Notes under the pieces: model-generated
What the model was told of the DNA's origin: nothing
The model's database searches: none
What the model saw: only the letters and a program-made list of their open reading frames with translations
Assembly: GCA_043778225.1 (NCBI GenBank)
Contig: JAYWGM010000101.1
Location: forward strand, 32,001 to 96,000
DNA: 64,000 nucleotides
Origin: Deinococcales bacterium
Lineage (GTDB): Bacteria; Deinococcota; Deinococci; Deinococcales; JAAFIG01
Direction of reading: 5' to 3'
Shown here: piece by piece, positions 44,228 through 64,000 of the stretch
Numbering within the stretch: position 1 is the stretch's first letter
Layout: each line of letters starts with the position of its first letter
Made by a program: the position numbers and the translations under genes

Positions 44228-47200
44228 GTGATAAAGCCCAAACCAAAAGAATTACCTGTCGTGGTTGGCATCGGCGCTTCGGCTGGCGGTCTCGAGGCAT
44301 TCTCGAAACTCTTAAAGGCGCTTAAACCAGACACGGGCATGGCTTTTGTTTTGCTGCAACACCTCGAGCGCAGTCACGATAGCTTGCTGAGCGAATTATT
44401 GGCACGCACCACCAGCATGAAGGTTATCGAAATTATAGATGGCATCAGCCTTTTCGCCAATTGTGTTTATGTCATTCCACCCAATGTTAGCGTGGTCATG
44501 AAGCGCGGTGTTTTACGGCTTTTGCCGCGTCCTGCGGGGCGAGAATTACACCAGCCCATCAATGAATTTTTTAGTTCGCTGTCTCAGGCACGGCTGCATC
44601 AGGCAATTGGTGTGGTCTTGTCCGGCACAGCTTCGGATGGCACAGTTGGCTTAGAAGCGATTAAAGCCGCCGGCGGAATCACTTTTGCCCAGCGTCCAGA
44701 GTCGGCACGTTCGCCAGCCATGCCGCGCAGTGCCATCAAAGCTGGTGTGGTGGATTTTGTGCTGTCGCCCGAAGAGATTGCCGCCAAGTTGGTCAGTTTA
44801 GCCCAAGACCCATACTTAGGAAAAGCCAACAAGCGTCAGGCTCGAGCCAAACCAAGTGCGGCAGCCAGCAGCGATGATGGCTTTGAAGCGATTTTACATT
44901 TACTCCAAGATGCCAAAGACGTGGATTTTTCTTTGTACCGCTCAACCACAATTGGGCGGCGAATAAGGCGGCGGATGCTGCTCGATTCGATGACTTCAAC
45001 CACACGCTATATCGAACATCTACGCAGTCAGCCAGCCGCGCTCGAGTTGCTGTATCAAGATTTGCTGATTGGTGTGACCAGTTTTTTTCGTGATGCCCAT
45101 GTTTTTGAATGCCTACAAAAAACAGTTTTCCCCGAACTGCTTAAAGACCGTGCCGCCGATGATGTGCTGCGAATCTGGGTCAGTGGTTGCTCGACCGGAC
45201 AAGAAGCCTATTCTTTGGGGATGGCGTACTTGGAATGTATGGCACTTGCCAAAGTCAATATCCCACTGCAAATTTTTGCCACCGACTTAAACGCCCCAAT
45301 GCTCGAGAAAGCCCGTGCGGGTTGGTACTCGGCTGCCAGCATGGAGAATGTTTCGCCCGAGCGCCGCAAACGTTTTTTTAGCGAAGAAAAAGATGGTTGG
45401 CGCATCAGCGAAGCGGTGCGTGAAAAAATAATCTTTTCAAAACAAAATGTTTTTGCCGACCCGCCTTTTTCGCGTATGGACTTGGTTACTTGCCGAAATT
45501 TACTGATTTACCTCGAGCCAGCCCTGCAAAGCCGTGTCATTCCAACCCTGCACTATGCCTTAAAACCGCAGGGTGTCTTGCTGCTTGGCGCTTCGGAAAC
45601 GGTTGGGCGCTTTGAGGATTTATTTGGCGTGCTTGACCAGTCTTGCCGGTTTTATAGTAAGCGCTTGGTCAGCAGCCGAATTCCAAAACTCGAGGGGCGA
45701 ATTGTCAAATCGGTGGTCAGTAAACAAGAACCCACCGCCTCGGTGGTCAGTGCCAGTACAGTACAAACAGGGCGCGAGGTAGACCATTTGCTGCTTTTGC
45801 GCTATGCCCCAAGCAGTGTCGTGGTCAACGATGCGCTCGAGGTGGTGCAGTTTCGTGGCTCGACCAGTCAATTTTTAGAAGCCCCGAGCGGTAAAGCCAC
45901 TTTTAATTTGCTCAAGATGGCACGTGAAGGCTTAATGTTGCCATTGCGGCGTTTGACCGACCAAGCCCGCCAAGAAAATCGGGTCGTGCGCCTCGAGCAT
46001 CTGCGCTATTCGTACAACGGTGCAGTGGTTGCGATCAATCTCGAGGTTCAGCCCTTAAAACAACCCGGTTGTCTGTTGGTGCTGTTCGAGGTCTTGCCAG
46101 AATTACCAGCCGCCCAGCCGACTGCCGAGCCACAAACCCAGACCCGCCAACTCGAGGACTTGAACCGCGAATTATTAGAGTCCCGCGAATATGTGCGCTT
46201 TATCCAGCGCCAAAACGAAGACGAAAACGAACAGTTCCAAGCTGCCAATGCCGAAATGCAATCCTCGGGCGAAGAATTACAAAGCCTCAACGAAGAACTC
46301 GAGACCGCCAAAGAAGAACTCGAGTCCACCAACGAAGAAATCCAAACCTTAAACCAAGAACTGACGGTGCGGAACGCCGAATTGTTGCGCTTAAATACGG
46401 TCTTGACCAATTTCCAAAGCAGTGCCGAATTGGCAATTGTGGCGGTCAGCTTGGACTTAGAAGTGCAACGTTTTACCCCACAAGCCGAACGTACTTTGGG
46501 TTTACGCAACACTGACCTTGGGCAGCCGATTGGTCGGCTGAGCCATTTATTAAATTTACCCGATTTAGAAGAACTTGTTTTGACGGTTATTACTCAAGAA
46601 AAACCAACCGACTGCGAAGTTCGTGACCGCGATGGGCGCTGGTTTTTATTGCGGATTCGTCCCTATTACACCCCCGAAAATGATATTGACGGCGCGGTGC
46701 TGGTCTTGTTCGAGATGGATGCCCTAAAAAGAGCCGAACTCGAGCGAGAACGGCTACAACAACAAACCGAAGTTGTTTTTGAAAGCCTTGCCGATGGCTT
46801 ACTTGCCCTCAGTCACGATTGGATGATTACCTATATCAATGCCAACGGCGCACGTTTGGCGAATCGGTCAAAAGAGACCATGCTGGGTCGTAATTATTGG
46901 TCAATTTTTCCAGAAGTGATTGACACCGTTTTTGAGACTGGCTACAGAAAAGCCATGACTGAACGGGTGACGGTAGACCTCGAGGCGTATTATCCTGCGC
47001 TGGCTGCCCAATTTGAGGTTCGGGCTGTGCCAGTCGAGACTGGAATCACGGTTTTTTTTCGCGATGTCACCACACGGCACGAAACCGAAATCTTGGTTGC
47101 CGAAACCAAAGAAAAACTGCGCGTGCTTGCCGAAAGCCAACAGCGTTTTTTAGCCGATGCCGCCCACGAGTTACGCGCTCCGTTGGCGGTCATTCAGGGC

Positions 47201-47806
47201 AACCTTGAGGTGCTTGAACGCTTCCCCGAGATGCCAGCCCCAGACCGTTTAGAAGCCATCAGCGACAGCGCCCGCGAAGCCACACGCCTCGCCCAACTGG
47301 CAAATGATTTACTGGCACTGGCTCGAGGTGACGCTGGCGACGGTCTGCGGCTTGAGCCACTTGAATTAGCGGCACTGGTTTCAGAAACCCTCCTAGGTGC
47401 AACTTATCTGGATATTCAAAACCAACTCGAGTTGGGTACAATCGAGTCGGCTTTGGTTTTAGGCGATGCCAATAAACTTAAACAACTGGTGCTGATTCTG
47501 CTCGATAACGCCATGAAATACTCGCCAGAAGGTGGAAAAGTCAGCCTGAGTTTGCAGCACCAAACCAGCCATGCCGAATTAAGAGTCTCGGACAGTGGTC
47601 AGGGTATTGACGAAGCAGACCTCGAGCGGGTTTTTGAACGTTTTTACCGCACCGATACCTCGCGTTCACGCCAGACCGGCGGCACGGGATTAGGTTTACC
47701 GATTGCCCGTTGGATTAGCGAGCAGCACCACGCTAAACTCTGGCTCGAGAGTCAGGTTGGCGTTGGCACAACTGCCGTGTTGCGTTTACCGCTCATGCCA
47801 GAATAA
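44228..47806 (+). CDS. CheB/CheR fusion with PAS domains and histidine kinase
   Basis: GIGASAGGLEA, VLSGTASDG, VTSFFRD, GCSTGQEAYS, CRNLLIY, EELETAKEELESTNEE, AHELRAPL, DNAMKY, GTGLGL. Confidence 0.95.
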   Translation: MIKPKPKELPVVVGIGASAGGLEAFSKLLKALKPDTGMAFVLLQHLERSHDSLLSELLARTTSMKVIEIIDGISLFANCVYVIPPNVSVVMKRGVLRLLPRPAGRELHQPINEFFSSLSQARLHQAIGVVLSGTASDGTVGLEAIKAAGGITFAQRPESARSPAMPRSAIKAGVVDFVLSPEEIAAKLVSLAQDPYLGKANKRQARAKPSAAASSDDGFEAILHLLQDAKDVDFSLYRSTTIGRRIRRRMLLDSMTSTTRYIEHLRSQPAALELLYQDLLIGVTSFFRDAHVFECLQKTVFPELLKDRAADDVLRIWVSGCSTGQEAYSLGMAYLECMALAKVNIPLQIFATDLNAPMLEKARAGWYSAASMENVSPERRKRFFSEEKDGWRISEAVREKIIFSKQNVFADPPFSRMDLVTCRNLLIYLEPALQSRVIPTLHYALKPQGVLLLGASETVGRFEDLFGVLDQSCRFYSKRLVSSRIPKLEGRIVKSVVSKQEPTASVVSASTVQTGREVDHLLLLRYAPSSVVVNDALEVVQFRGSTSQFLEAPSGKATFNLLKMAREGLMLPLRRLTDQARQENRVVRLEHLRYSYNGAVVAINLEVQPLKQPGCLLVLFEVLPELPAAQPTAEPQTQTRQLEDLNRELLESREYVRFIQRQNEDENEQFQAANAEMQSSGEELQSLNEELETAKEELESTNEEIQTLNQELTVRNAELLRLNTVLTNFQSSAELAIVAVSLDLEVQRFTPQAERTLGLRNTDLGQPIGRLSHLLNLPDLEELVLTVITQEKPTDCEVRDRDGRWFLLRIRPYYTPENDIDGAVLVLFEMDALKRAELERERLQQQTEVVFESLADGLLALSHDWMITYINANGARLANRSKETMLGRNYWSIFPEVIDTVFETGYRKAMTERVTVDLEAYYPALAAQFEVRAVPVETGITVFFRDVTTRHETEILVAETKEKLRVLAESQQRFLADAAHELRAPLAVIQGNLEVLERFPEMPAPDRLEAISDSAREATRLAQLANDLLALARGDAGDGLRLEPLELAALVSETLLGATYLDIQNQLELGTIESALVLGDANKLKQLVLILLDNAMKYSPEGGKVSLSLQHQTSHAELRVSDSGQGIDEADLERVFERFYRTDTSRSRQTGGTGLGLPIARWISEQHHAKLWLESQVGVGTTAVLRLPLMPE

Positions 47807-54781: not shown

Positions 54782-55885
54782 GTGACCGATTTCTACTCGA
54801 GCCAAGACCAAGAATTTATTGCCCTGTTGCGCGAAGCGGTGCAGATTCAGAGCCACAGCACCCAAGAAGCCGATGTCTGCCGTTTTCTGGTGCGCTGGAT
54901 GCACAAACGCGGCTTTCGTGCCGAAATGGACGGGGCGGGCAATGCAGTAGGCGCACGTGGCACTGGCACAAAAGAAGTTGTCTTGTTGGGGCATATTGAC
55001 ACCGTACCGGGCGATATTGAAGTGCGAATCGAAAACAACCAAGCAGGCAAGCTCGAGTTGTGGGGGCGTGGCAGTGTCGATGCCAAAGGACCATTTTGTA
55101 CCTTTGTGGCTGCCGTGAGTTTGTTGTCTCCAGCCGCACTCGAGAAAGCCAAGTTTATTTGTGTGGGCGCGGTCGAAGAAGAAGCCCCTTCCTCTAAAGG
55201 CGCACACCATGCGATTAGTAAATACACTCCAGCCTACTGCATTATTGGCGAACCAAGTGGCTTTGATACGGTCACGCTTGGCTACAAAGGCAGGCTGATT
55301 ATCCGCGCTCGGCTCGAGAAAGACAATTTCCATAGTGCTGGCGCGGACAGCACCGCTCCCGAGGAGATGCTGCGTTTTTTTCAGGCACTCGAGACATGGG
55401 CAGCCGTTTTTAATCAAGACCAACGGCTTTTTGACAGCGTGCAAGTGGCGCTGCAAGCCATCTCGAGCAGCAACGATGGTTTGCGCCAAGGCTGCGAAGC
55501 AACGATTGGTTTTCGTTTGCCACCGCGTTTAAGCCCCGACGAGGCAATGCGCCAACTTGAAGCGGTGCGGCTTGGGCAAAATGTACAAGGACTCAGAATC
55601 AGTTACACTGGGCGCGAAGAACCATACCGAGGTGCAAAAGATACCCCTTTAACCCGAGCTTTTCGGGTGGCGATGCGTGCCAGAGGTATTACCCCACAAC
55701 TGACCTTAAAGACTGGCACTGCCGATATGAATGTGGTTGCACCACTTTGGGATTGTCCAATTCTGGCTTATGGACCCGGCGACAGCACCCTCGACCACAC
55801 CCCAACCGAGCGGCTCGAGATAGACGAATACCTGACGGCTATTTTGGTATTGCGCGATGCTCTGGAGCGGCTGGTTGCAAATTGA
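54782..55885 (+). CDS. lysK: [LysW]-lysine hydrolase
   Basis: [49 protein letters not shown]. Confidence 0.92.
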
Positions 55886-58800
55886 GGTTTTGACTGCGTG
55901 GTAAAAATACCGATTCGATGTGGGTATACGAAAGGCTTGCCAGGCTGTAACTCGCCAGCCATACAAAAGCACAAATGGCTGCCCAATGCCAAGGGTCTTG
56001 GATGCCACCATATCTGAAATCAGAGTTGTGCAGTAAGCGCACCAACTCGAGAATCAGGTAATGCCAAATATAAATCCCAAAGGATAATTTGGCGGTATAG
56101 CGACTGAATGGATTATCAAGAATTTTTGGCAAGCGTACCGAAAAAGCAGCGCTAAATAAAAGCAGCCCAATTAAACTTGGGAAGATCGGAAAAGCATACG
56201 GCTGGCTTCCAAGACTCCAAGCAAATTCTGGGCTATAGCGGGTTGCCCAGACCCATGCAGCAATCAAAACCATGCTGGCGATTGCCAGATAATCGAAGGT
56301 TCTCGAGCGCGGTCGCTGCTGACGTAAACAGATTGCCCCAGCACACAGCACCCCGATAATATAGTGCGAAAACCAGCCAAGCGGGTTGTAATTGGGCATC
56401 CAGAATTTAGCGCCACCAATTAAGCCATATTGCCAGCCACGTTGGTCATTGTCTGGGACAAGATGATTGAGAATCCAAAAATGCGCCAGAAGCGTCAACA
56501 GTAAAACCGCAATCCAGTAGGCAAAGGCAAGGGTTGGGCTGCTGTTGGCGGCTTTGGTCTGAAAAGTTTTGCGAATTGTTTTGGTGGTGACAATTTGTGT
56601 ATCGCCTCTGGTGATGGTGCGCTTATGGGTGATTTGCCAAATTGGGCGGACTCGAGCAATCGCAAACAAGCCAAGCATAAAAAGTGGCATCAGGGCATAG
56701 CAAACCACTTCAAAACCAATGCTCCAAAGTGGACCATTTAATTCGGTTGGAAAAAAAGTCACGTAGTGAAAAGCACTGCTAAAAGTCAAACCAGAGACCA
56801 AACGCAACCACATTTGTTCGCCAGGCTCGAGGCTGCGGGCAACCAAAAAGCTGACAATCAGGGCGACATAAAACCCAGGGGCAATCCTTAAAAAACGGCG
56901 TTTGGCATACTCGAGTAGGCTTGGTGCAGCTTGAGCCGTATAATAGCGTTTCCAAAAAGGCAAAGACAAAAGCATTCCAGACAGCACAAAAAAAGCACTG
57001 ACCCCATAGCCACCAGCCATTAAAAATTGCTTAATCTCGAGTAACCATTTGGGAATGTTCTCGGGGCTTAAACGCTGCCCCAAATGACTCCAGACCACCG
57101 CTAGGCAAGCCACAGTTCGCACAAAATCTGCGCCATCCAAAAGACGGGCGCTACCAGACTCGAGTATTGTTGTTTTGAAATCAAACAGTTTTCGTTCGGC
57201 AACCAAACCAAAACCTCGAGCCAGTTGCGGTGCGAAAAACAATAAAATCAGAATGCTCGGGAGGGTGCTGATGGCACTGGCAAGTAAAAAACCTTGGCTG
57301 TTACTCAAAAATCCCAGCACTTGGGGAATGACTCGGGTCATTTCGCTCCGCAGCATTAAGGTTGCCACATCGAGTTGATTCCAAGTGCTGATAAAAGTCA
57401 GGACAGCAATCGTTATTAAGACTGGAGTCATTAAAGGAACGGCAATTCGGGTGTAAATGGTTTGGTTGCTTGCGCCGTCCACCCGCGCTGCTTCGATTAG
57501 GGATTTTGGAATGGCGTGTAAGCAAAATTGGCGCACCAGAAAAACACCAATCGCACTGTATGAAGCTGGCAACCAAATGGTTCTGGGGGTGTCGATCCAA
57601 TCCAAAAGCCGCATTTGCATCAGGTGCGGAATGGCGCTGGACAAAGCTGGAAAGACCATGGCAATCAAAACCACCAAAAACAATTGACGTTTATAGGGAA
57701 ACTCGAGCGCCGCAAAAGCAAATCCTGCCAAGCTGCTGGTCAGCACCGCCCCAAAGGCAGCGAGGCTCGAGATATAGAGGCTGTTCCAGAGGTTGCGCCA
57801 AAACATCGGCATATCGCGTTGTAATGCCTCGTAATTACTGCCTAAGTCTTGCCCAAAAGCTAAACTCAGCCCTGAATTATTCTGGCTCGAGCCAAATAAA
57901 CTGTTCAAAAAATCGCGCCAGAAGCCAACGCCATCGCGCATGGCTGCCAAGTCAAGATTAAAATTGCGGCTGGATGGCAACTCAAAACTCGAGCCATTTT
58001 GGGTGGTCTGAAAAAAAAGCGCAATCAGTGGGAAAACACTGAGCAACACAACAAAGACCATGAATAGTTTAATCAAAATAACATTGATGCGCGGCAAATT
58101 GAGCGGAGCATGGTCAGACTCGAGGCTGGCAGGGCTTTCTAAGCCAGTAAAGTTGCGCCCAAAAGCAAAATACGCCATGCCGACCAACAGCATCAGCACC
58201 AATAAAAATACCCATGTCTGGGCGGCTGCCATCGAAAAATTGGTGTAATGAAAAGCAGTCCCAAAAATAAACCCAGGCAGTTTTGCACTTTCAAAATTTG
58301 AGTAATCTGCCCGCCAAGCATTGGCTTGTAGGCGTTGGACAATGCTGATACTGACCGCCACAAAAATCATCGGTCGCATCAAAGGAAAAGCGAGGCTGCC
58401 AAGTTGCCGCCAAAAACCTGCTCCATCCAATTGGGCTGCCTCGAGCATACTGCGTGGCACACTGGACAACGCCATCAGGTAAAGCAAAATATTCCAGCCA
58501 AAACCAATCCAGATTGCCGAAAAAATCTGCAAACCCGAAGCTGGTATTTGCAAACCGACCAGACCAAGCAAGTCGTTTAAGGGATTACTAAACAACAAAA
58601 AAAAGAAACTCAGCCCACTCGAGACCGCCACTGGGGCGACCAGCATCGGCACAAGCAGCAAACCACCCAGCGAAGCCAACGCTCGGCGCAAAACCAAATG
58701 GATTGCAAACGCCGCAGGAATGGCAATGGCGTGCTGTAAAACCAAAGCTGGTAAAGCCTCGAGTAAAGAGCGCAGCAACGCCAACCAAAAAGCTGGGTCG

Positions 58801-59015
58801 GTAAAAACAAAGCCATAAAAACGCAAGCCACGAAAGTAAAATTCGCCTGTGCCTTGAATTGGATCCCACAAAAAAACCGAAATAAAGAAGGTAAACAGCA
58901 AACTAAAAATTCCAAAACCAATAAAAAGCACAAAAAAAGGCAGCACAAAAAAAGTACCGCTCGAGATTTTCGCTCGAGCCAAGGGTTTTGTAGCCGTGGG
59001 CAGGGTTTGAATCAT
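55839..59015 (-). CDS. Fusion of two carbohydrate ABC permeases and an acyltransferase-3 domain
   Basis: Two EAA loops ([18 protein letters not shown]); AT3 motifs [35 protein letters not shown]...Y, SFGIYIWH. Confidence 0.85.
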
Positions 59016-59986
59016 GGTTGTAGGATTTTGGCAAAAAACGTGAGTTTCTCGAGTCCCTGAATACTTTGCCCACCTTCGTGATTGTTGTACGGATAGACCC
59101 GAATTTCTTTTTGCCCTGCATGGTGGTTATAGGCGGCGTAAACCGTACTTGGTGGGCAGATGTCGTCCATCAGTCCAACGCTGTAGAGGGCGGGTATGTT
59201 GGTGCGCTTGGCAAAATTAATTCCATCAAAATAACTCAGGGTGGTAAAAACTTGCTCGAGTTGGTCGCGGTGAATTTTTAAGTAGGCACTGATTTCACCG
59301 TAAGGATGAGTCGCCACGATTTCGGTTGCCCGACGGTAATGGCATAAAAACGGCACATCTGGAGCAAGTGCTTGGACTGACTCGAGCGCCGCCGCCGCAA
59401 TCGCCATACCACCGCCTTGACTGCCGCCAGTCACGGCAATGCGGCTTGGGTCAATCATGCTTAAATGCTTGGCAGTTTCGATGGCTCGCACCGCATCGGC
59501 AAAAACCCGACGGTAATAATAGGTGCTTTGGTGGGTGATGCCCTTGGTCATAAAGCCGGGATAATGCCCGTTCTGGGAGGCAACGTCTTCAAGGTCTGGG
59601 GTGTCGCCAGAACTCCAATTGCTGCCTTGTCCTCGAGTGTCCATAAACAGGTGGGCATAGCCAGCACTGGCAAAAAACAGCAAATCGTGGGCTTGGTTAC
59701 GCCCGCCGCCATAGCCATTAAATTCAACAATGCAGGGTATTTTTTCGGGTCGGTGACGTGGCAAACTGAGCCAGGCTTTAATCGGTTGCCCGTTGTATCC
59801 CGAAAAAGTCAGGTCGTAACTTTCGATTGTCTGCATTGGGGTGGCATAAGGTAGGCATTGGATTTTTAGATCGTGGGATCGAGTTTCTAAAAGCGTGTTT
59901 TCCCAAAAAGCGTCAAAATCGCTTGGCTCGAGAACATCAGGGCGATACTGCTCGAGTTGGCTCAGGGGTAAGTCAAATAATGGCAT
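59012..59986 (-). CDS. Acetylxylan esterase / cephalosporin-C deacetylase (CE7)
   Basis: MPLFDLPL, DFDAFW, DTRGQG, GGSQGGG, D..CPPST, HEGG. Confidence 0.95.
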   Translation of the reverse strand: MPLFDLPLSQLEQYRPDVLEPSDFDAFWENTLLETRSHDLKIQCLPYATPMQTIESYDLTFSGYNGQPIKAWLSLPRHRPEKIPCIVEFNGYGGGRNQAHDLLFFASAGYAHLFMDTRGQGSNWSSGDTPDLEDVASQNGHYPGFMTKGITHQSTYYYRRVFADAVRAIETAKHLSMIDPSRIAVTGGSQGGGMAIAAAALESVQALAPDVPFLCHYRRATEIVATHPYGEISAYLKIHRDQLEQVFTTLSYFDGINFAKRTNIPALYSVGLMDDICPPSTVYAAYNHHAGQKEIRVYPYNNHEGGQSIQGLEKLTFFAKILQP

Positions 59987-60017
59987 GATTGGTCATCTCC
60001 TGTAGGCAGTGTAGCCG

Positions 60018-62501
60018 TTAATCATCGGCTGCCACCAGTCTAGGACTCAGGTCAACGGTGTGTTGACCGCCCAGCCAACGAAGCTCGAGTAAATCCACAA
60101 TACTTGGGAACTCGAGTATCTGCGGGTCGTTGGGCATTAAATCGAGCATATTGTCAGAAATCTGGTCAGTCTCGAGCCAGACGGCTTTGACGGGCTTATC
60201 GGTACTGATTTTTAGGCGATGTTGGTCAAGGCGTTCAATTGAAATTTTGGCATTGGGAAATTGAAATTTAACATAAGGTTCTGGGAAAAAACTGTCTCGA
60301 GCAATCACTTTATTATTTTGCAGTAGGCGCACTTGAATAATTTGTGGCTCGAGCATAGGCGCTACCGTCCCCAACTCGGTGCTGGCATTGGCTGGCAGTT
60401 GCACAGGGCGGCTGGTGGTTTCTATGGCTTGACCTTGCAAATCAAAAACACGAATCTCTAAGGTGGCTTGGCAACCCAATAAACTGGTGTTACTGCCCCA
60501 AATTGCTCCATCTGACCAGAGGTTAATGGTAATCGCTTCTAAGGCGCGTTTGACCGTGTAATAGGCTGGTTTACAGCGCTGGCTCGAGTCTATAATTGCC
60601 CAACTGCTGACTTGCCAGCAATCGTTGAGTTGCCAAACCAATGCCCCACCACAGGCTCGAGTCCCCACATTTCCCCAAGCCCGCCGCCAAATTCGGTAGG
60701 CTGCATTTAAGGCTTCGGACTGCACAATTTGGGTTGCAAAGACAAAATCTTCTAACTTGTCCAGGTCAGAACGGATGTCGGAGGCGTATTTCTCGAGCCG
60801 CATCATCCCTTCTCCAGCCTTGATGTGGTGCAAAAAACTTGGACTGTGGGGTTGCCACGCCTCTTTGGGAATGACTTCGCGCAGGGTCTCAAGTCGGGGG
60901 GCTGCACCCATGCCAAACTCGGAGATAAAACGTCCGCCCAGACGTGCATATTCGCGGTATGGCGCGGCATCCCGTCCCCAGACTTCCCAGGTGTGGCGGT
61001 CGCCAATTGTCTGGTCGTCGGGGTCTTGCCCAAAGTATGGACTGCCAGCTTGATAATAGACATCTGGGCAAAACTCGAGCAGCGCTTTTGGTAAAATTTG
61101 TTCGTAAATTACTCGAGCGCCAAAGCCAGAATTGGCATCGGGGGCTGCCGCCATATTGTATAGCCCTAAGCCGTTGGCAAGTGGATAATCCTCGTTGTTG
61201 CCTGTCCAAATAATGATGCTCGGATGACTCCGCAAGCGCTTAACTTGATAAACCGCTTCTTCTTGGACACTTTCGAGAAAAGCTGGATGGGACGGATAAA
61301 TCCCGCAGCCAAACATAAAATCTTGCCAGACCAAAATACCCATTTGGTCGCAGAGGTCATAAAAAACTTTGTTTTCGTAAATCCCACCGCCCCAAATTCG
61401 CAGCATCGTCATGTTGGCATTTTTGGTGGCTTCGATTCGTGCCTTGTAACGTTCACCCGTGACTCGAGCCAACATCAGATCGTCGGGAATCCAATTTGCA
61501 CCATTGGTAAACATTGCTATGCCATTGATTTCAAAATAAAAACTTGTCCCGACTTGGTTTTCAATCGCTTCTTTGACGACCCGAACCTGACGAATCCCAA
61601 AAGTCTGTTCTTGGCTGTCTAAACATATCCCAGCCTGCTCGAGTGAAACCCGCAAGCGGTACAAAGGTTGCGTGCCAAGCGTATGTGGATACCAAAGTTC
61701 GGGTTGTAAAATCCAAAAGCGGTGTTTGAGCTTGCTACCAGCCGCCATGATGTGCTGCTCGAGCGCAATTCCATTGGGGTCGCAGAGGGTCAGCACCACT
61801 CTGGCTTCTTGGTACTGCCCGTGTAATTGCAAGTCAATGTCTATGGTACTTGTTTCGAGTGTTGCTTCGAGCTTAGGCTGAATATGGACTTCGGCAATTC
61901 GGGCATTGTACTGCTCGAGCCGAATTTCTTGCCAAATACCACTGTCCACCAATTTTGGACCCCAATCCCAAGAGTAGTGGTATTGGGCTTTACGCACGTG
62001 TAAGCGGCTTGGGTCGCCATTCCAGAGTGGTCGTGCGCCGCCATGGGCTTGCATTCGCTTTAAGCCCTCGAACCAAGCGCTCTTAAAATGAATCTCGAGG
62101 CGGTTTTTGGCTTTGAGTTGCACCGTAATTCGCTGCCCCAAAAACATATTTTCTGACTCGAGAATTAAATCGCCATTGAGGTAAACATCGGCAAAAGTGT
62201 CCAAGCCATCAAAACACAATTGGTTCTGCAAAAAACCCAGTTCGGCACTAAACTCGAGGCAATACAACCAGTCGCGCTCAGACACCCACTGCACCAGATT
62301 TTCGTTTTGGTCAAAATATGGGTCGGGGATTAAGCCATGCTCGAGTAAATTCTGATAGGTACTGCTTGGAACTTGGCAACTCAGCCAGCCATTGGGGTTA
62401 GCAAAATCTTCGAGCATCGAATGGCTGTTTTGGCGTTCCCGAAATAACCAGCCACTTGTTAAGGGTTGCTTTTGCAGCAACTCGAGTTTTGATATGGGCA
62501 T
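60018..62501 (-). CDS. Beta-mannosidase (GH2)
   Basis: RKAQYHYSWDWGP, GANWIP, RIWGGG.YE, WQDFMF, WTGNNE, FISEFG, WQLNDCW. Confidence 0.95.
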   Translation of the reverse strand: MPISKLELLQKQPLTSGWLFRERQNSHSMLEDFANPNGWLSCQVPSSTYQNLLEHGLIPDPYFDQNENLVQWVSERDWLYCLEFSAELGFLQNQLCFDGLDTFADVYLNGDLILESENMFLGQRITVQLKAKNRLEIHFKSAWFEGLKRMQAHGGARPLWNGDPSRLHVRKAQYHYSWDWGPKLVDSGIWQEIRLEQYNARIAEVHIQPKLEATLETSTIDIDLQLHGQYQEARVVLTLCDPNGIALEQHIMAAGSKLKHRFWILQPELWYPHTLGTQPLYRLRVSLEQAGICLDSQEQTFGIRQVRVVKEAIENQVGTSFYFEINGIAMFTNGANWIPDDLMLARVTGERYKARIEATKNANMTMLRIWGGGIYENKVFYDLCDQMGILVWQDFMFGCGIYPSHPAFLESVQEEAVYQVKRLRSHPSIIIWTGNNEDYPLANGLGLYNMAAAPDANSGFGARVIYEQILPKALLEFCPDVYYQAGSPYFGQDPDDQTIGDRHTWEVWGRDAAPYREYARLGGRFISEFGMGAAPRLETLREVIPKEAWQPHSPSFLHHIKAGEGMMRLEKYASDIRSDLDKLEDFVFATQIVQSEALNAAYRIWRRAWGNVGTRACGGALVWQLNDCWQVSSWAIIDSSQRCKPAYYTVKRALEAITINLWSDGAIWGSNTSLLGCQATLEIRVFDLQGQAIETTSRPVQLPANASTELGTVAPMLEPQIIQVRLLQNNKVIARDSFFPEPYVKFQFPNAKISIERLDQHRLKISTDKPVKAVWLETDQISDNMLDLMPNDPQILEFPSIVDLLELRWLGGQHTVDLSPRLVAADD

Positions 62502-62509
62502 AAAAACCT

Positions 62510-62562
62510 CTTTGTTTAGTAAAATTTATCAATACGGTAACATCTCGAGTCTGTACTGTCAA
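62510..62562 (-). promoter_or_regulatory. Sigma70-type promoter and putative operator of the mannosidase operon
   Basis: TTGACA-17-TACCGT followed by AATTTTACTAAACAAAG (minus strand). Confidence 0.7.
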
Positions 62563-62701: not shown

Positions 62702-63688
62702 ATGACCCTCAGCCGAAAAGTCACCATCCGTGAAGTTGCACAACACGCCAATGTCTCGATCGGTACAGTCTCGAGAGCCTTAAAGAACCAAAACGGGCTT
62801 TCGGACGATACTCGAGAAGAGATTTTGCGGGCGGCTCAAACACTTGGTTATGACACCGGAAATCTGCGCCAGACGCGCATTAAACGGCTTGGCTTTTTCA
62901 CTTGGCGAATGCCCGATTTACTGGTCAATCCTTTTTACTCGCCAGTCCTGCATGGGGTCGAAGATGCCTGTAGTGAACAAGAAATTGTGCTTTCCTATAC
63001 GGCTTTTAGACCGAGCGATAAAGTCTTAGAAATCATTCGCCGCCACGAAGTAGATGCGCTTTTGTGTGTTTCGTATTTTCAACCTAAATTGCTCGAGAAA
63101 ATTGCTTCGCTTGGGGTTCAAGTGCTGCTGGTCGATCATTTCCACCCAAGTTTAACCAGCGTCAATATTGACAACATCGGTGGTGCAAAAAAAGCCGTGC
63201 AGCATTTACTCGAGCTTGGCAGAAAACGCATTGCTTATGTCAATGGAATGAACCACCATTCGATTGTCGAACGCGCCCGAGGCTTTCGCCAAGCCCTATT
63301 TGAAGCGGGAATGCCCGCCGACCCAAGTCTCGAGGTCAACACCGACCCACATTTTGATATTGCCGAAGTCCAAAAAGCCACCGAGCAGCTATTGGCACTG
63401 GCTGTACCACCCGATGCGATTTTTGTCTTTAATGATAAATCTGCGCTGGTGGTACAACGGGTCTGTATTGAAGCAGGTTTTCGTGTGCCACAAGACATAG
63501 CAATTGTTGGCTTTGACGACATTGATGCGGCTTCACACGCTCGCCCAAGTTTAAGCACGGTTCGCGTCAGCAAAGAAGAATTGGGGCGCAGAGCCGTACA
63601 AATGCTGGTCAACCGCGAAGAAAACAGTTTGGTTGTTCCGGTTGAACTGATTGTGCGCGGTAGCAGTTTAGCTAAAAAACAAAAATAA
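62702..63688 (+). CDS. LacI family transcriptional regulator
   Basis: TIREVAQHANVSIGTVSRAL, NPFY, VPQDIAIVGFDD, PSLSTV. Confidence 0.96.
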   Translation: MTLSRKVTIREVAQHANVSIGTVSRALKNQNGLSDDTREEILRAAQTLGYDTGNLRQTRIKRLGFFTWRMPDLLVNPFYSPVLHGVEDACSEQEIVLSYTAFRPSDKVLEIIRRHEVDALLCVSYFQPKLLEKIASLGVQVLLVDHFHPSLTSVNIDNIGGAKKAVQHLLELGRKRIAYVNGMNHHSIVERARGFRQALFEAGMPADPSLEVNTDPHFDIAEVQKATEQLLALAVPPDAIFVFNDKSALVVQRVCIEAGFRVPQDIAIVGFDDIDAASHARPSLSTVRVSKEELGRRAVQMLVNREENSLVVPVELIVRGSSLAKKQK

Positions 63689-63791: not shown

Positions 63792-63847
63792 TTGACAGAC
63801 GCAACAGACTGTATTACCATATGTCTGTTCAATTTTACTAAACAAAG
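63792..63847 (+). promoter_or_regulatory. Sigma70-type promoter and putative operator
   Basis: TTGACA-17-TACCAT, then the same 17-mer AATTTTACTAAACAAAG at 63831-63847. Confidence 0.75.
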
Positions 63848-63915: not shown

Positions 63916-64000
63916 ATGAAGAATTTGCGGTTATTGGCAGCATTTGGCATCGGTGCGCTGGCGGTTGGGGCAATGTTTGCTTCGGCGCAGACAGGTCGTA
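63916..64000 (+). CDS. Secreted protein, probably a sugar-binding protein (3' truncated by window edge)
   Basis: GAGGAG RBS and signal peptide MKNLRLLAAFGIGALAVGAMFASAQ; identity inferred from context only. Confidence 0.55.
   Translation, partial: MKNLRLLAAFGIGALAVGAMFASAQTGR

Follow-up and report, generated by a model that had tools for sequence, protein, structure and literature searches.

A conserved MalF–MalG–acyltransferase-3 fusion protein that accompanies beta-glycan importers in the Deinococcota, a candidate acylating permease

Introduction

The closest described relatives of the protein considered here are the CUT1 type I ATP-binding cassette (ABC) importers (MalFGK2, LpqY-SugABC and AlgM1M2SS) and the acyltransferase-3 (AT3) or transmembrane acyltransferase (TmAT) enzymes (OafA/OafB, OatA, OpgC, TmaT and HGSNAT). 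The protein is a 1058-amino-acid fusion of MalF-like, MalG-like and AT3 domains (F, G and AT3 below), encoded on a 64,000-nucleotide stretch from a Deinococcales bacterium (GenBank assembly GCA_043778225.1, contig JAYWGM010000101.1, positions 32,001 to 96,000) that we refer to as the window. It shares with the CUT1 importers two permease domains, the EAA loops, the aromatic residues of the inner pocket and common descent, but differs from them in being a single chain with AT3, in having neither a solute-binding protein (SBP) gene nor an ATPase gene of its own, in its remodelled gate and in the absence of the MalG tail; it is also additional to a complete importer and lies below the NCBIfam permease cut-offs. 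With the AT3 enzymes it shares the Pfam family, the R-X10-H, DxxR, RxxR and SxxxY motifs and the HGSNAT/GWT1 fold. Unlike OafA and OatA, it lacks an SGNH domain, is joined to sugar permeases and is found in catabolic regulons rather than in glycan-synthesis clusters.

The best-known role of AT3 proteins is the decoration of surface glycans. HGSNAT, the nearest solved fold to that of the AT3 domain of the fusion, carries out transmembrane acetylation within a glycan degradation pathway; it differs in being a eukaryotic enzyme that N-acetylates glucosamine and in its low identity (11–12%), and the annotated genes near the fusion include none for glucosamine glycans. LacA and Maa are soluble cytoplasmic enzymes of unrelated fold that are not joined to a transporter, and LacA has a detoxifying role; they are similar only by a works-like analogy, namely an acetyltransferase tied to sugar uptake and an acetylated sugar in the medium. 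Maa-dependent acetyl-mannose accumulates in the Escherichia coli supernatant (bioRxiv 10.64898/2026.02.23.707450). Acetylation by TmaT promotes the export of trehalose lipids, and the Corynebacterium pairing of TmaT with CmpL/MmpL resembles the fusion in tying AT3 acetylation to membrane passage of a sugar-bearing substrate, with later deacetylation (PMC8698533); it differs in that the proteins are separate, the transporter is of the RND type, the substrate is a lipid and the pathway is biosynthetic. The fusion would thus work like TmaT/CmpL or LacA/Maa while being a member of neither.

A review of AT3 proteins names SGNH and alanine-racemase fusions, and the words ‘ABC’ and ‘permease’ are absent from its main text; its section 14 describes AT3 proteins as joining an acyl group from inside the cell to a sugar beyond the cytoplasm, and treats how AT3-only enzymes meet their acceptor as an open question (PMC9558356). 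Literature searches aimed at a permease–AT3 fusion, which covered titles and the openings of abstracts outside subscription journals and supplements, returned no description of one, as had been anticipated by a first-pass annotation of the window made from its letters alone. The single listed paper that contains both Pfam names is a study of a probiotic genome. We report here that the fusion is conserved and is accessory to complete importers, and we consider it probable from its sequence and surroundings that the AT3 domain adds acyl groups to the oligosaccharides that the fused permease pair handles, or takes such groups off them, in one direction or the other.

Results and discussion

The fusion is a single conserved protein

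The fusion gene (P0001) occupies 55839..59015; coordinates are window positions on the reverse strand unless stated otherwise. The reading frame is free of stops, and Pfam finds Acyl_transf_3 (PF01757) at residues 628–1025 with 106.8 bits (cut-off 31) and BPD_transp_1 (PF00528) at residues 429–600 with 46.6 bits. An AlphaFold model of the whole chain, built with 58 sequences, has a predicted local distance difference test score (pLDDT) of 82.2 and a predicted template-modelling score (pTM) of 0.80, and the limits of F, G and AT3 were set from the predicted structure. The first-pass annotation had described one uninterrupted permease–permease–AT3 frame, which Pfam and the fold matches bear out, with domain positions that agree with the model-based limits to within ∼50 bases. 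It had also expected two BPD_transp_1 matches; only one stretch passes the threshold here, the first permease being recognized by its fold (SugA), while two stretches pass in a second fusion copy in the same genome.

Contigs from two of the three sequencing runs span both domain junctions without differing letters or gaps, but they may be the source of the window DNA itself and so are not independent proof. The independent proof that the fusion is genuine comes from its relatives: a whole-protein search gave 63 matches, of which 61 hold both Pfam families, with a query coverage of 82–100%. The other 60 clusters are 38–88% identical, and the relatives include the second copy in this genome and proteins named from Deinococcus and Meiothermus. 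The AT3 part was matched in 15 of the 18 other genomes of the bacterium's taxonomic family, mostly within open frames of 1000–1150 residues, and ∼28 of the 364 genomes of the phylum carry the fusion, some of these copies being cut by contig ends. The ratio of nonsynonymous to synonymous substitution rates (dN/dS) in seven pairwise comparisons within the taxonomic family, several with dS values above 1, is 0.05–0.15 per domain (0.066–0.070 for F against two relatives), compared with 0.04–0.10 for canonical permeases; for orphan copies of the fusion it is 0.10–0.22. The conserved family, the dN/dS values and the gap-free coverage of the junctions rule out an assembly or frameshift artefact, and the two dN/dS ranges for the fusion likewise rule out pseudogene drift of its permeases. 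All three domains are under purifying selection (dN/dS 0.05–0.12), and the stops or frameshifts at the junctions, the degenerate fusion private to one assembly and the lack of linkage of AT3 to such loci that the annotation had named as grounds for abandoning its claim were not found. The MalF–MalG–AT3 fusion is a real, conserved and uncharacterised protein.

The AT3 domain

The AT3 domain (residues 623–1035; 55911..57149) has the TmAT fold. In the whole-chain model this segment superposes on HGSNAT with a Z score of 16.9; a model of the AT3 domain (pLDDT 88.2) compared with 48,161 chains gave three that reach Z 5, namely HGSNAT at 15.4 (root-mean-square deviation, r.m.s.d., 5.6 over 313 aligned residues) and 13.9 and GWT1 at 10.9. 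A sequence search matched no solved AT3 structure. The DxxR and R-X10-H motifs, as defined in PMC9833829 and PMC12423673, lie in helix 1 (57084..57128), and among the 61 aligned fusions Asp630 is kept in 58, Arg633 in all and His644 in 60. The RxxR motif before helix 3 (56886..56897) keeps Arg707 in all 61 and Arg710 in 60, and the SxxxY motif of helix 9 (56070..56084) keeps Ser978 in 59 and Tyr982 in 54, with Phe in five others. By every feature that can be tested (Pfam, motifs and fold), the domain is a member of the AT3 family.

The domain has two further elements. A loop with the signature RGW.YG..GGAK.W.P.YN (56385..56441) is common to fused and stand-alone members and is probably an acceptor-side loop, and a Thr/Arg-rich beta-hairpin insertion (56538..56648) is present in most of the window's clade. 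There is no Pfam match to a C-terminal SGNH domain and the protein ends 23 residues past AT3; some other fusions (P0024 and P0027) have an extra C-terminal helix and a soluble domain of ∼110 residues beyond it.

The permease pair is importer-derived and remodelled

The first permease domain (residues 15–291; 58143..58973) is MalF/SugA-like by a hidden Markov model (HMM) of our own and by its fold, the model matching SugA (PDB entry 8ja7, chain A; 8ja7_A) with Z 17.7 and an r.m.s.d. of 4.3 over 268 residues. The second (residues 306–607; 57195..58100), which carries the PF00528 match, is MalG-like, with residues 307–606 superposing on 4ki0_G at Z 20.3. Residues 32–601 model as a single unit that resembles the single-chain FbpB (9j4r_A; Z 23.0, r.m.s.d. 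4.0, 460 aligned). Both EAA coupling loops are present, the first at 58383..58442 (Glu192, Ala193, Gly198 and Pro211 each in 61 of 61 fusions) and the second at 57435..57494 (Glu508, Asp513 and Gly514, likewise), and EAA-loop residues are in general kept in 54–61 of the 61. In the inner pocket, the equivalent by alignment of MalF Tyr383 (Trp174) is Trp or Phe in 59 of 61 fusions, and the equivalent of MalF Tyr325 (position 124) is Tyr or Phe in 55.

The outer side is different. Of the positions that are invariant in the canonical sister permeases, fused F retains 51 of 101 and fused G 60 of 109. The outward gate and the last outer loop of F are remodelled (58287..58346): the canonical LF.EPF is lost and a new Trp234 is found in 59 of 61 fusions, while the gate helix and last loop together measure 49–51 residues in 56 of 58 fusions compared with 55–56 in 19 of 19 canonical sisters, making this segment 4–7 residues shorter; in the betaproteobacterial forms it is 38–46 residues. 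An apparent loss of MalF Phe436 was dropped from this list, as the canonical sisters also align Gly there; the Phe that is lost is the Phe441 equivalent, which is adjacent to Val442, an outward-gate residue of MalF (PMC8134467). The last outer loop of G is 42 residues in the window, five under canonical, and has the same length in five of six AT3-G and four of four G-AT3 proteins, compared with 47–50 in 15 of 15 sisters. The first outer loop of G has a low-confidence insertion of ∼37 residues (57846..57998) that is confined to the closest relatives. The free C-terminal tail of MalG (GxTxGxVK), which docks on the ATPase dimer, is replaced by the linker to AT3, leaving only Gly601 and a hydrophobic residue 602; this linker ranges from 18 to 73 residues across the family. 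The MalG tail is important for ATPase coupling, and deleting the corresponding tail in AraQ made growth almost fivefold slower (PMC5730181). Against the NCBIfam UgpE/MalG equivalogs (‘glycerol-3-phosphate permease’) the protein scores 66.8 and 57 bits, compared with cut-offs of 297 and 261, and it is below all permease cut-offs.

The fused pair is thus derived from an importer but fails two features of the CUT1 type, the free MalG tail and the canonical outward gate and loops, and because these are absent we do not class it as an importer. The genome has one MsmX-like ATPase gene (G000:C66:11533-12699) for ∼30 permease pairs. No additional binding-protein gene dedicated to the fused pair was found; a co-regulated SBP that has its own permeases could be shared.

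The loss of the tail and the remodelling of the gate would also suit a pair that does not transport at all, and instead binds sugar or ATPase as a sensor or scaffold to switch or position AT3, which would then acylate a periplasmic oligosaccharide or an envelope glycan, one possible benefit being protection of the cell's own beta-glycans against co-induced glycanases. The fused pair is always accessory, and the stand-alone AT3 relatives, which carry the same signature loop, lie mostly outside sugar loci, as such a role would allow. However, the inner-pocket aromatics have been retained, as have both EAA loops, purifying selection on the two permease halves is like that on canonical permeases, a free tail-like end persists where AT3 precedes G, and the annotated genes around the fusions include none for envelope glycans. 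We judge a sensor or scaffold to be rather unlikely.

The fusion is accessory to a complete beta-glycan importer

In the window the fusion is the last gene of an operon that begins with a GH2 beta-mannosidase (60018..62501; its best solved relatives are beta-mannosidases, 5n6u with E 8e-144) and continues with a CE7 acetyl esterase (59012..59986; AXE1, 384.7 bits), the stop codon of which overlaps the start of the fusion as ATGA; both the upstream beta-mannosidase and the overlap had been described correctly at first pass. A LacI-family repressor identified by family search is divergent (62702..63688, forward strand) and is followed by the start of an SBP gene (63916..64000, forward strand), the operon of which runs beyond the end of the window. 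Just past it on the same contig are the remainder of the SBP gene, its own MalF and MalG, a GH5 whose closest solved relatives are endoglucanases, a GH1 and more. As this complete importer has its own permeases, the fused pair is an extra, and the idea that the fusion is the sole importer of its regulon is rejected. The second fusion copy (contig C93) heads a series LacI-SBP-F-G-GH81-GH1-GH43-sugar kinase.

Thirty-three fusion loci were collected, 27 of them with at least 4 kb of flank, and in 16 of these 27 glycosidase or xylose genes lie no more than 6 kb away (two of the 16 are the same sequence). The corresponding figure for random places in this genome is 3.5%. The other 11 lack such genes, the neighbours having been labelled with 21 reference proteins and two permease HMMs that distant sugar genes and binding proteins can escape. 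The window's clade goes with mannan genes and a second clade with xylan or beta-1,3-glucan genes, so that the proposed tie to beta-glycan use holds among relatives. In genus g7 (probably Deinococcus), the canonical SBP is present in 81 of 111 genomes and the fusion in seven, all of them among the 81, leaving 74 importer-bearing genomes without it.

The regulatory sites follow the same pattern. An operator-like site, TTTTACTAAAC, precedes the GH2-CE7-fusion operon (62514..62524) and is conserved in mannan-type loci; a motif scan placed a second copy before the canonical importer operon (63833..63843, forward strand). These two are the only matches in the window, where 0.07 would be expected, and in seven of seven mannan-type loci the motif is part of the transcript that runs to the fusion; in all six that include an SBP gene it also precedes that gene. 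A promoter-like site of the GH2-CE7-fusion operon with an exact TTGACA and a weak −10 element, missed by the promoter scanner, was read from the sequence at 62534..62562, and that of the importer operon, TTGACA-17-TACCAT, was found by the scanner at 63792..63820 on the forward strand. For the second clade, three sites like TGAAAGCGCTTTCA (at most one mismatch) are present in this genome; all belong to the C93 locus, where they precede the fusion, LacI and SBP genes. The fusion in genus g7 is often among housekeeping genes, and in four of five g7 genomes tested a TGAAAGCGCTTTCA-type operator is directly upstream of the otherwise orphan fusion; there are 2–3 such sites per genome, the remainder being before the SBP operon, LacI or glycosidase genes. 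Some fusion copies have no visible operator. The protein acting on both kinds of site would be LacI. The operator was not seen before 57 of 59 non-fused AT3 genes, which is weak evidence because operators differ between taxa. Taken with the gene contents, these sites show the fused pair to be accessory to a complete beta-glycan importer, which it adjoins or with which it shares a LacI-type operator.

Stand-alone AT3 genes at two loci, L155:9941-11173 and L148, have the operator TGAGAGCGCT(T/C)TCA; the former is divergent from a cellobiose-type SBP-F-G-GH1-LacI operon and has the operator of that importer in common.

The same AT3 subfamily has joined sugar permeases repeatedly

A profile of this AT3 subfamily and one further search recovered F-AT3-G (Rhizobacter), F-AT3 (Uliginosibacterium), AT3-G with a separate F gene (Brevinematales and Deltaproteobacteria) and G-AT3, giving with F-G-AT3 five domain orders, of which the other four are in other phyla; forms with AT3 before G retain a free tail-like end. 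The subfamily is also once fused to a major facilitator superfamily (MFS) carrier as AT3-MFS. In ten metagenome loci (∼four distinct sequences) and one split copy, a cellobiose-2-epimerase-like gene comes after AT3-G; the module of permease F, AT3-G and the epimerase-like protein, which has an N-terminal hydrophobic leader, is at L109, L113, L123, L126 and L128-L134, and with our limited reference set no binding protein was detected within 6 kb of these modules. Other fusions of the same or a neighbouring AT3 group (P0062; P0318, P0322-P0325, P0328, P0331 and P0335; P0200) have the architectures AT3-MFS, VanZ-AT3-PHP, VanZ-Wzy-AT3 and AT3-DUF2141.

A quick tree with long branches was made from 51 MalG-type domains (19 fused or F-G and 32 canonical). 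The fused domains fall in separate lineages and a single origin is rejected (approximately unbiased test, p=0.0005, the group having been chosen after the FastTree result was viewed). The Deinococcota and betaproteobacterial forms share one beta-glycan permease clade; counted with the separate lineages, this gives at least three origins. The permeases of the F-G-AT3 fusion descend from the clade of LacI-SBP-F-G-GH81/GH10-GH1 importers.

This recurrence bears on whether the two functions are independent and were joined for co-expression only. The variable linker between G and AT3 would suit such an arrangement, as would the existence of F-G without AT3 and of AT3 alone, and of split copies at L040:1890-5015 (F-G-AT3) and L128:9986-12051 (AT3-G), which could be due to sequencing error, decay or natural fission. 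Nevertheless, one AT3 subfamily has been joined to no fewer than three independent permease lineages, and the whole-chain pTM suggests a defined arrangement in the predicted structure. A fusion of mere convenience is the least probable of the explanations considered, and we regard it as very improbable.

The acetyl esterase and the case for an inward route

The first-pass annotation had proposed that manno-oligosaccharides are acetylated outside by AT3, which would keep them from competitors, imported in tagged form by the pair and deacetylated inside by CE7. Such a cycle would use the normal direction of AT3 and permeases of importer descent, and the epimerase-like protein of the AT3-G module, with its hydrophobic leader, could be a second outside modifier. 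The translational coupling to CE7 in the window's genus also favours it, as does the genome-wide distribution of CE7 (23 of 28 carriers compared with 94 of the 364 genomes of the phylum). However, only two of the seven mannan-type loci have CE7 placed between GH2 and the fusion (with the short-flank locus L039 there are three genomes, all of the window's genus), so CE7 as a fixed neighbour of the fusion is rejected, and there is no CE7 match in two 94%-complete carriers. The seven g7 carriers are perhaps 2–3 lineages with large genomes, it is hard to see how import could be of high affinity in the absence of a binding protein, and there is little to gain from tagging a sugar just before importing it. 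The natural substrates are also acetylated already, and acetylated mannan and xylan would account for CE7 without a cycle. The co-occurrence of CE7 thus offers weak backing for an inward cycle, given that related genomes are not independent samples and that those of the carriers are large; organisms feeding on acetylated hemicellulose would be expected to show it just as much. Of the proposed cycle, the fusion itself, its coupling to CE7 in the window's genus and the enrichment of CE7 in carriers stand; fixed adjacency to CE7 and restriction to mannan do not, and the pair is accessory. We regard tagging and unmasking as possible but unproven, and as unlikely. The anatomy is somewhat more in line with the other option raised in that annotation, a repurposed exporter, than with tagging on entry.

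Both mannan and xylan carry O-acetyl groups, and the pair might instead import naturally O-acetylated xylo- or manno-oligosaccharides that are ill-suited to the canonical importer, with AT3 running in reverse to pass the acetyl group to cytoplasmic CoA. The remodelled gate could admit substituted sugars, and carriers without CE7 exist. Transfer from ester to thioester is estimated to be uphill by ∼10 kJ/mol, though, we know of no AT3 protein that runs backwards, and several fusion loci are beta-1,3-glucan loci (GH81), the substrates of which are not typically acetylated. Acetyl salvage of this kind appears improbable.

Acylation on exit as the proposed mechanism

The reading that we place first, with a probability of about 0.36, is an accessory permease that is co-induced with the importer and acylates sugars on their way out, as an overflow valve similar to LacA/Maa; a sensor or scaffold, tagging on entry, acetyl salvage and mere co-expression follow in that order. 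The fused pair would be induced together with the normal beta-oligosaccharide importer, be powered by the single shared MsmX-type ATPase and run independently of a binding protein. Surplus or dead-end beta-oligosaccharides, such as branched remnants and transglycosylation products, would pass outward through the pair, and the tethered AT3 would move an acyl group, probably acetyl, from cytoplasmic acyl-CoA to the sugar at the outer face, where the acylated product would escape immediate re-uptake by the high-affinity importer. Exit acylation is ranked first because AT3 normally acylates a sugar on the outside and because a tethered pair that retains the inner pocket but no longer has the outer docking face would most simply supply AT3 with sugar from the cytoplasmic side. 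For one type I system, loss of the binding protein has been connected with a role resembling efflux (bioRxiv 10.64898/2026.05.04.722672).

Several observations weigh against acylation on exit. The replacement of the MalG tail by the linker means that pumping may be impaired, and export by an importer-fold pair has, to our knowledge, little precedent. The Tyr325 equivalent is Met in the window's own protein. Outer-loop shortening is not universal: the last loop of G is 41–59 residues over 58 fusions (median 46), and the spirochaete F loop and the G loop of F-AT3-G are of normal length. Orphan F-G fusions with the same outer erosion but without AT3 are present in three genomes of genus g22 (L078:5258-7162, L079:9071-10924 and L080:9065-10903) as a sister of the F-G-AT3 clade, and no AT3 of this subfamily was found in those three genomes. 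Stand-alone members of the AT3 subfamily have glycosidase or xylose neighbours in only two of 55 well-flanked loci, and the ancestral acceptor of the subfamily may thus be something else. A GH36 alpha-galactosidase is present in the genome, which weakens the dead-end argument for galactomannan; GH27 and GH67 were looked for and not found in this 89%-complete genome. Finally, CE7 is present in six of seven importer-bearing g7 genomes with the fusion compared with 16 of 74 without it (hand count; Fisher p=0.001), which suits an inward route.

Other features of the window and genome

The 3′ end of the fusion overlaps a convergent M20 peptidase gene (54782-55885), presumably LysK/ArgE-like, by 47 bases (55839-55885); relatives have other genes there. 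The mannan importer operon ends in genes for a Gfo/Idh/MocA oxidoreductase and a xylose-isomerase-like TIM barrel (G000:C101:101760-104357; L022:17761-19998), reminiscent of oxidation-elimination pathways of glycoside breakdown. At the locus of the second copy, L021:3557-6937 encodes a protein of 1127 residues with a C-terminal GH81 and an N-terminal half without annotation. On the forward strand at 44228-47806 is an open reading frame of 1192 residues that by eye reads CheB-CheR-PAS-histidine kinase. The whole genome (G000) has an extreme word bias, with CTCGAG 24,878 times compared with ∼984 expected from length alone, CTGCAG 13 times and GATC 2,062 times compared with ∼15,700. No plasmid match was found.

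Conclusions

Importer-derived permease pairs may, by convergent evolution, have given up their binding protein, taken on one AT3 subfamily at least three times and come to acylate oligosaccharides in transit, as an overflow valve or to make a tagged private cache; judged from the genes and their arrangement, we give this general picture close to, but short of, an even chance. The fusion places a probable acceptor-delivery partner on the same chain as AT3, which makes the question of how AT3 meets its acceptor directly testable. The regulon supplies candidate substrates (manno-, xylo- and laminari-oligosaccharides), and culturable carriers exist, WP_350240670.1 and WP_412029859.1 being proteins of this type. 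The fusion could show whether ABC pairs of the importer fold can run in reverse or do without a binding protein, and whether saprophytes, besides deacetylating fragments of hemicellulose, also acylate them. If the proposal is true, acylating ABC permeases would represent ABC transport coupled to group transfer and would give bacterial AT3 proteins a catabolic role.

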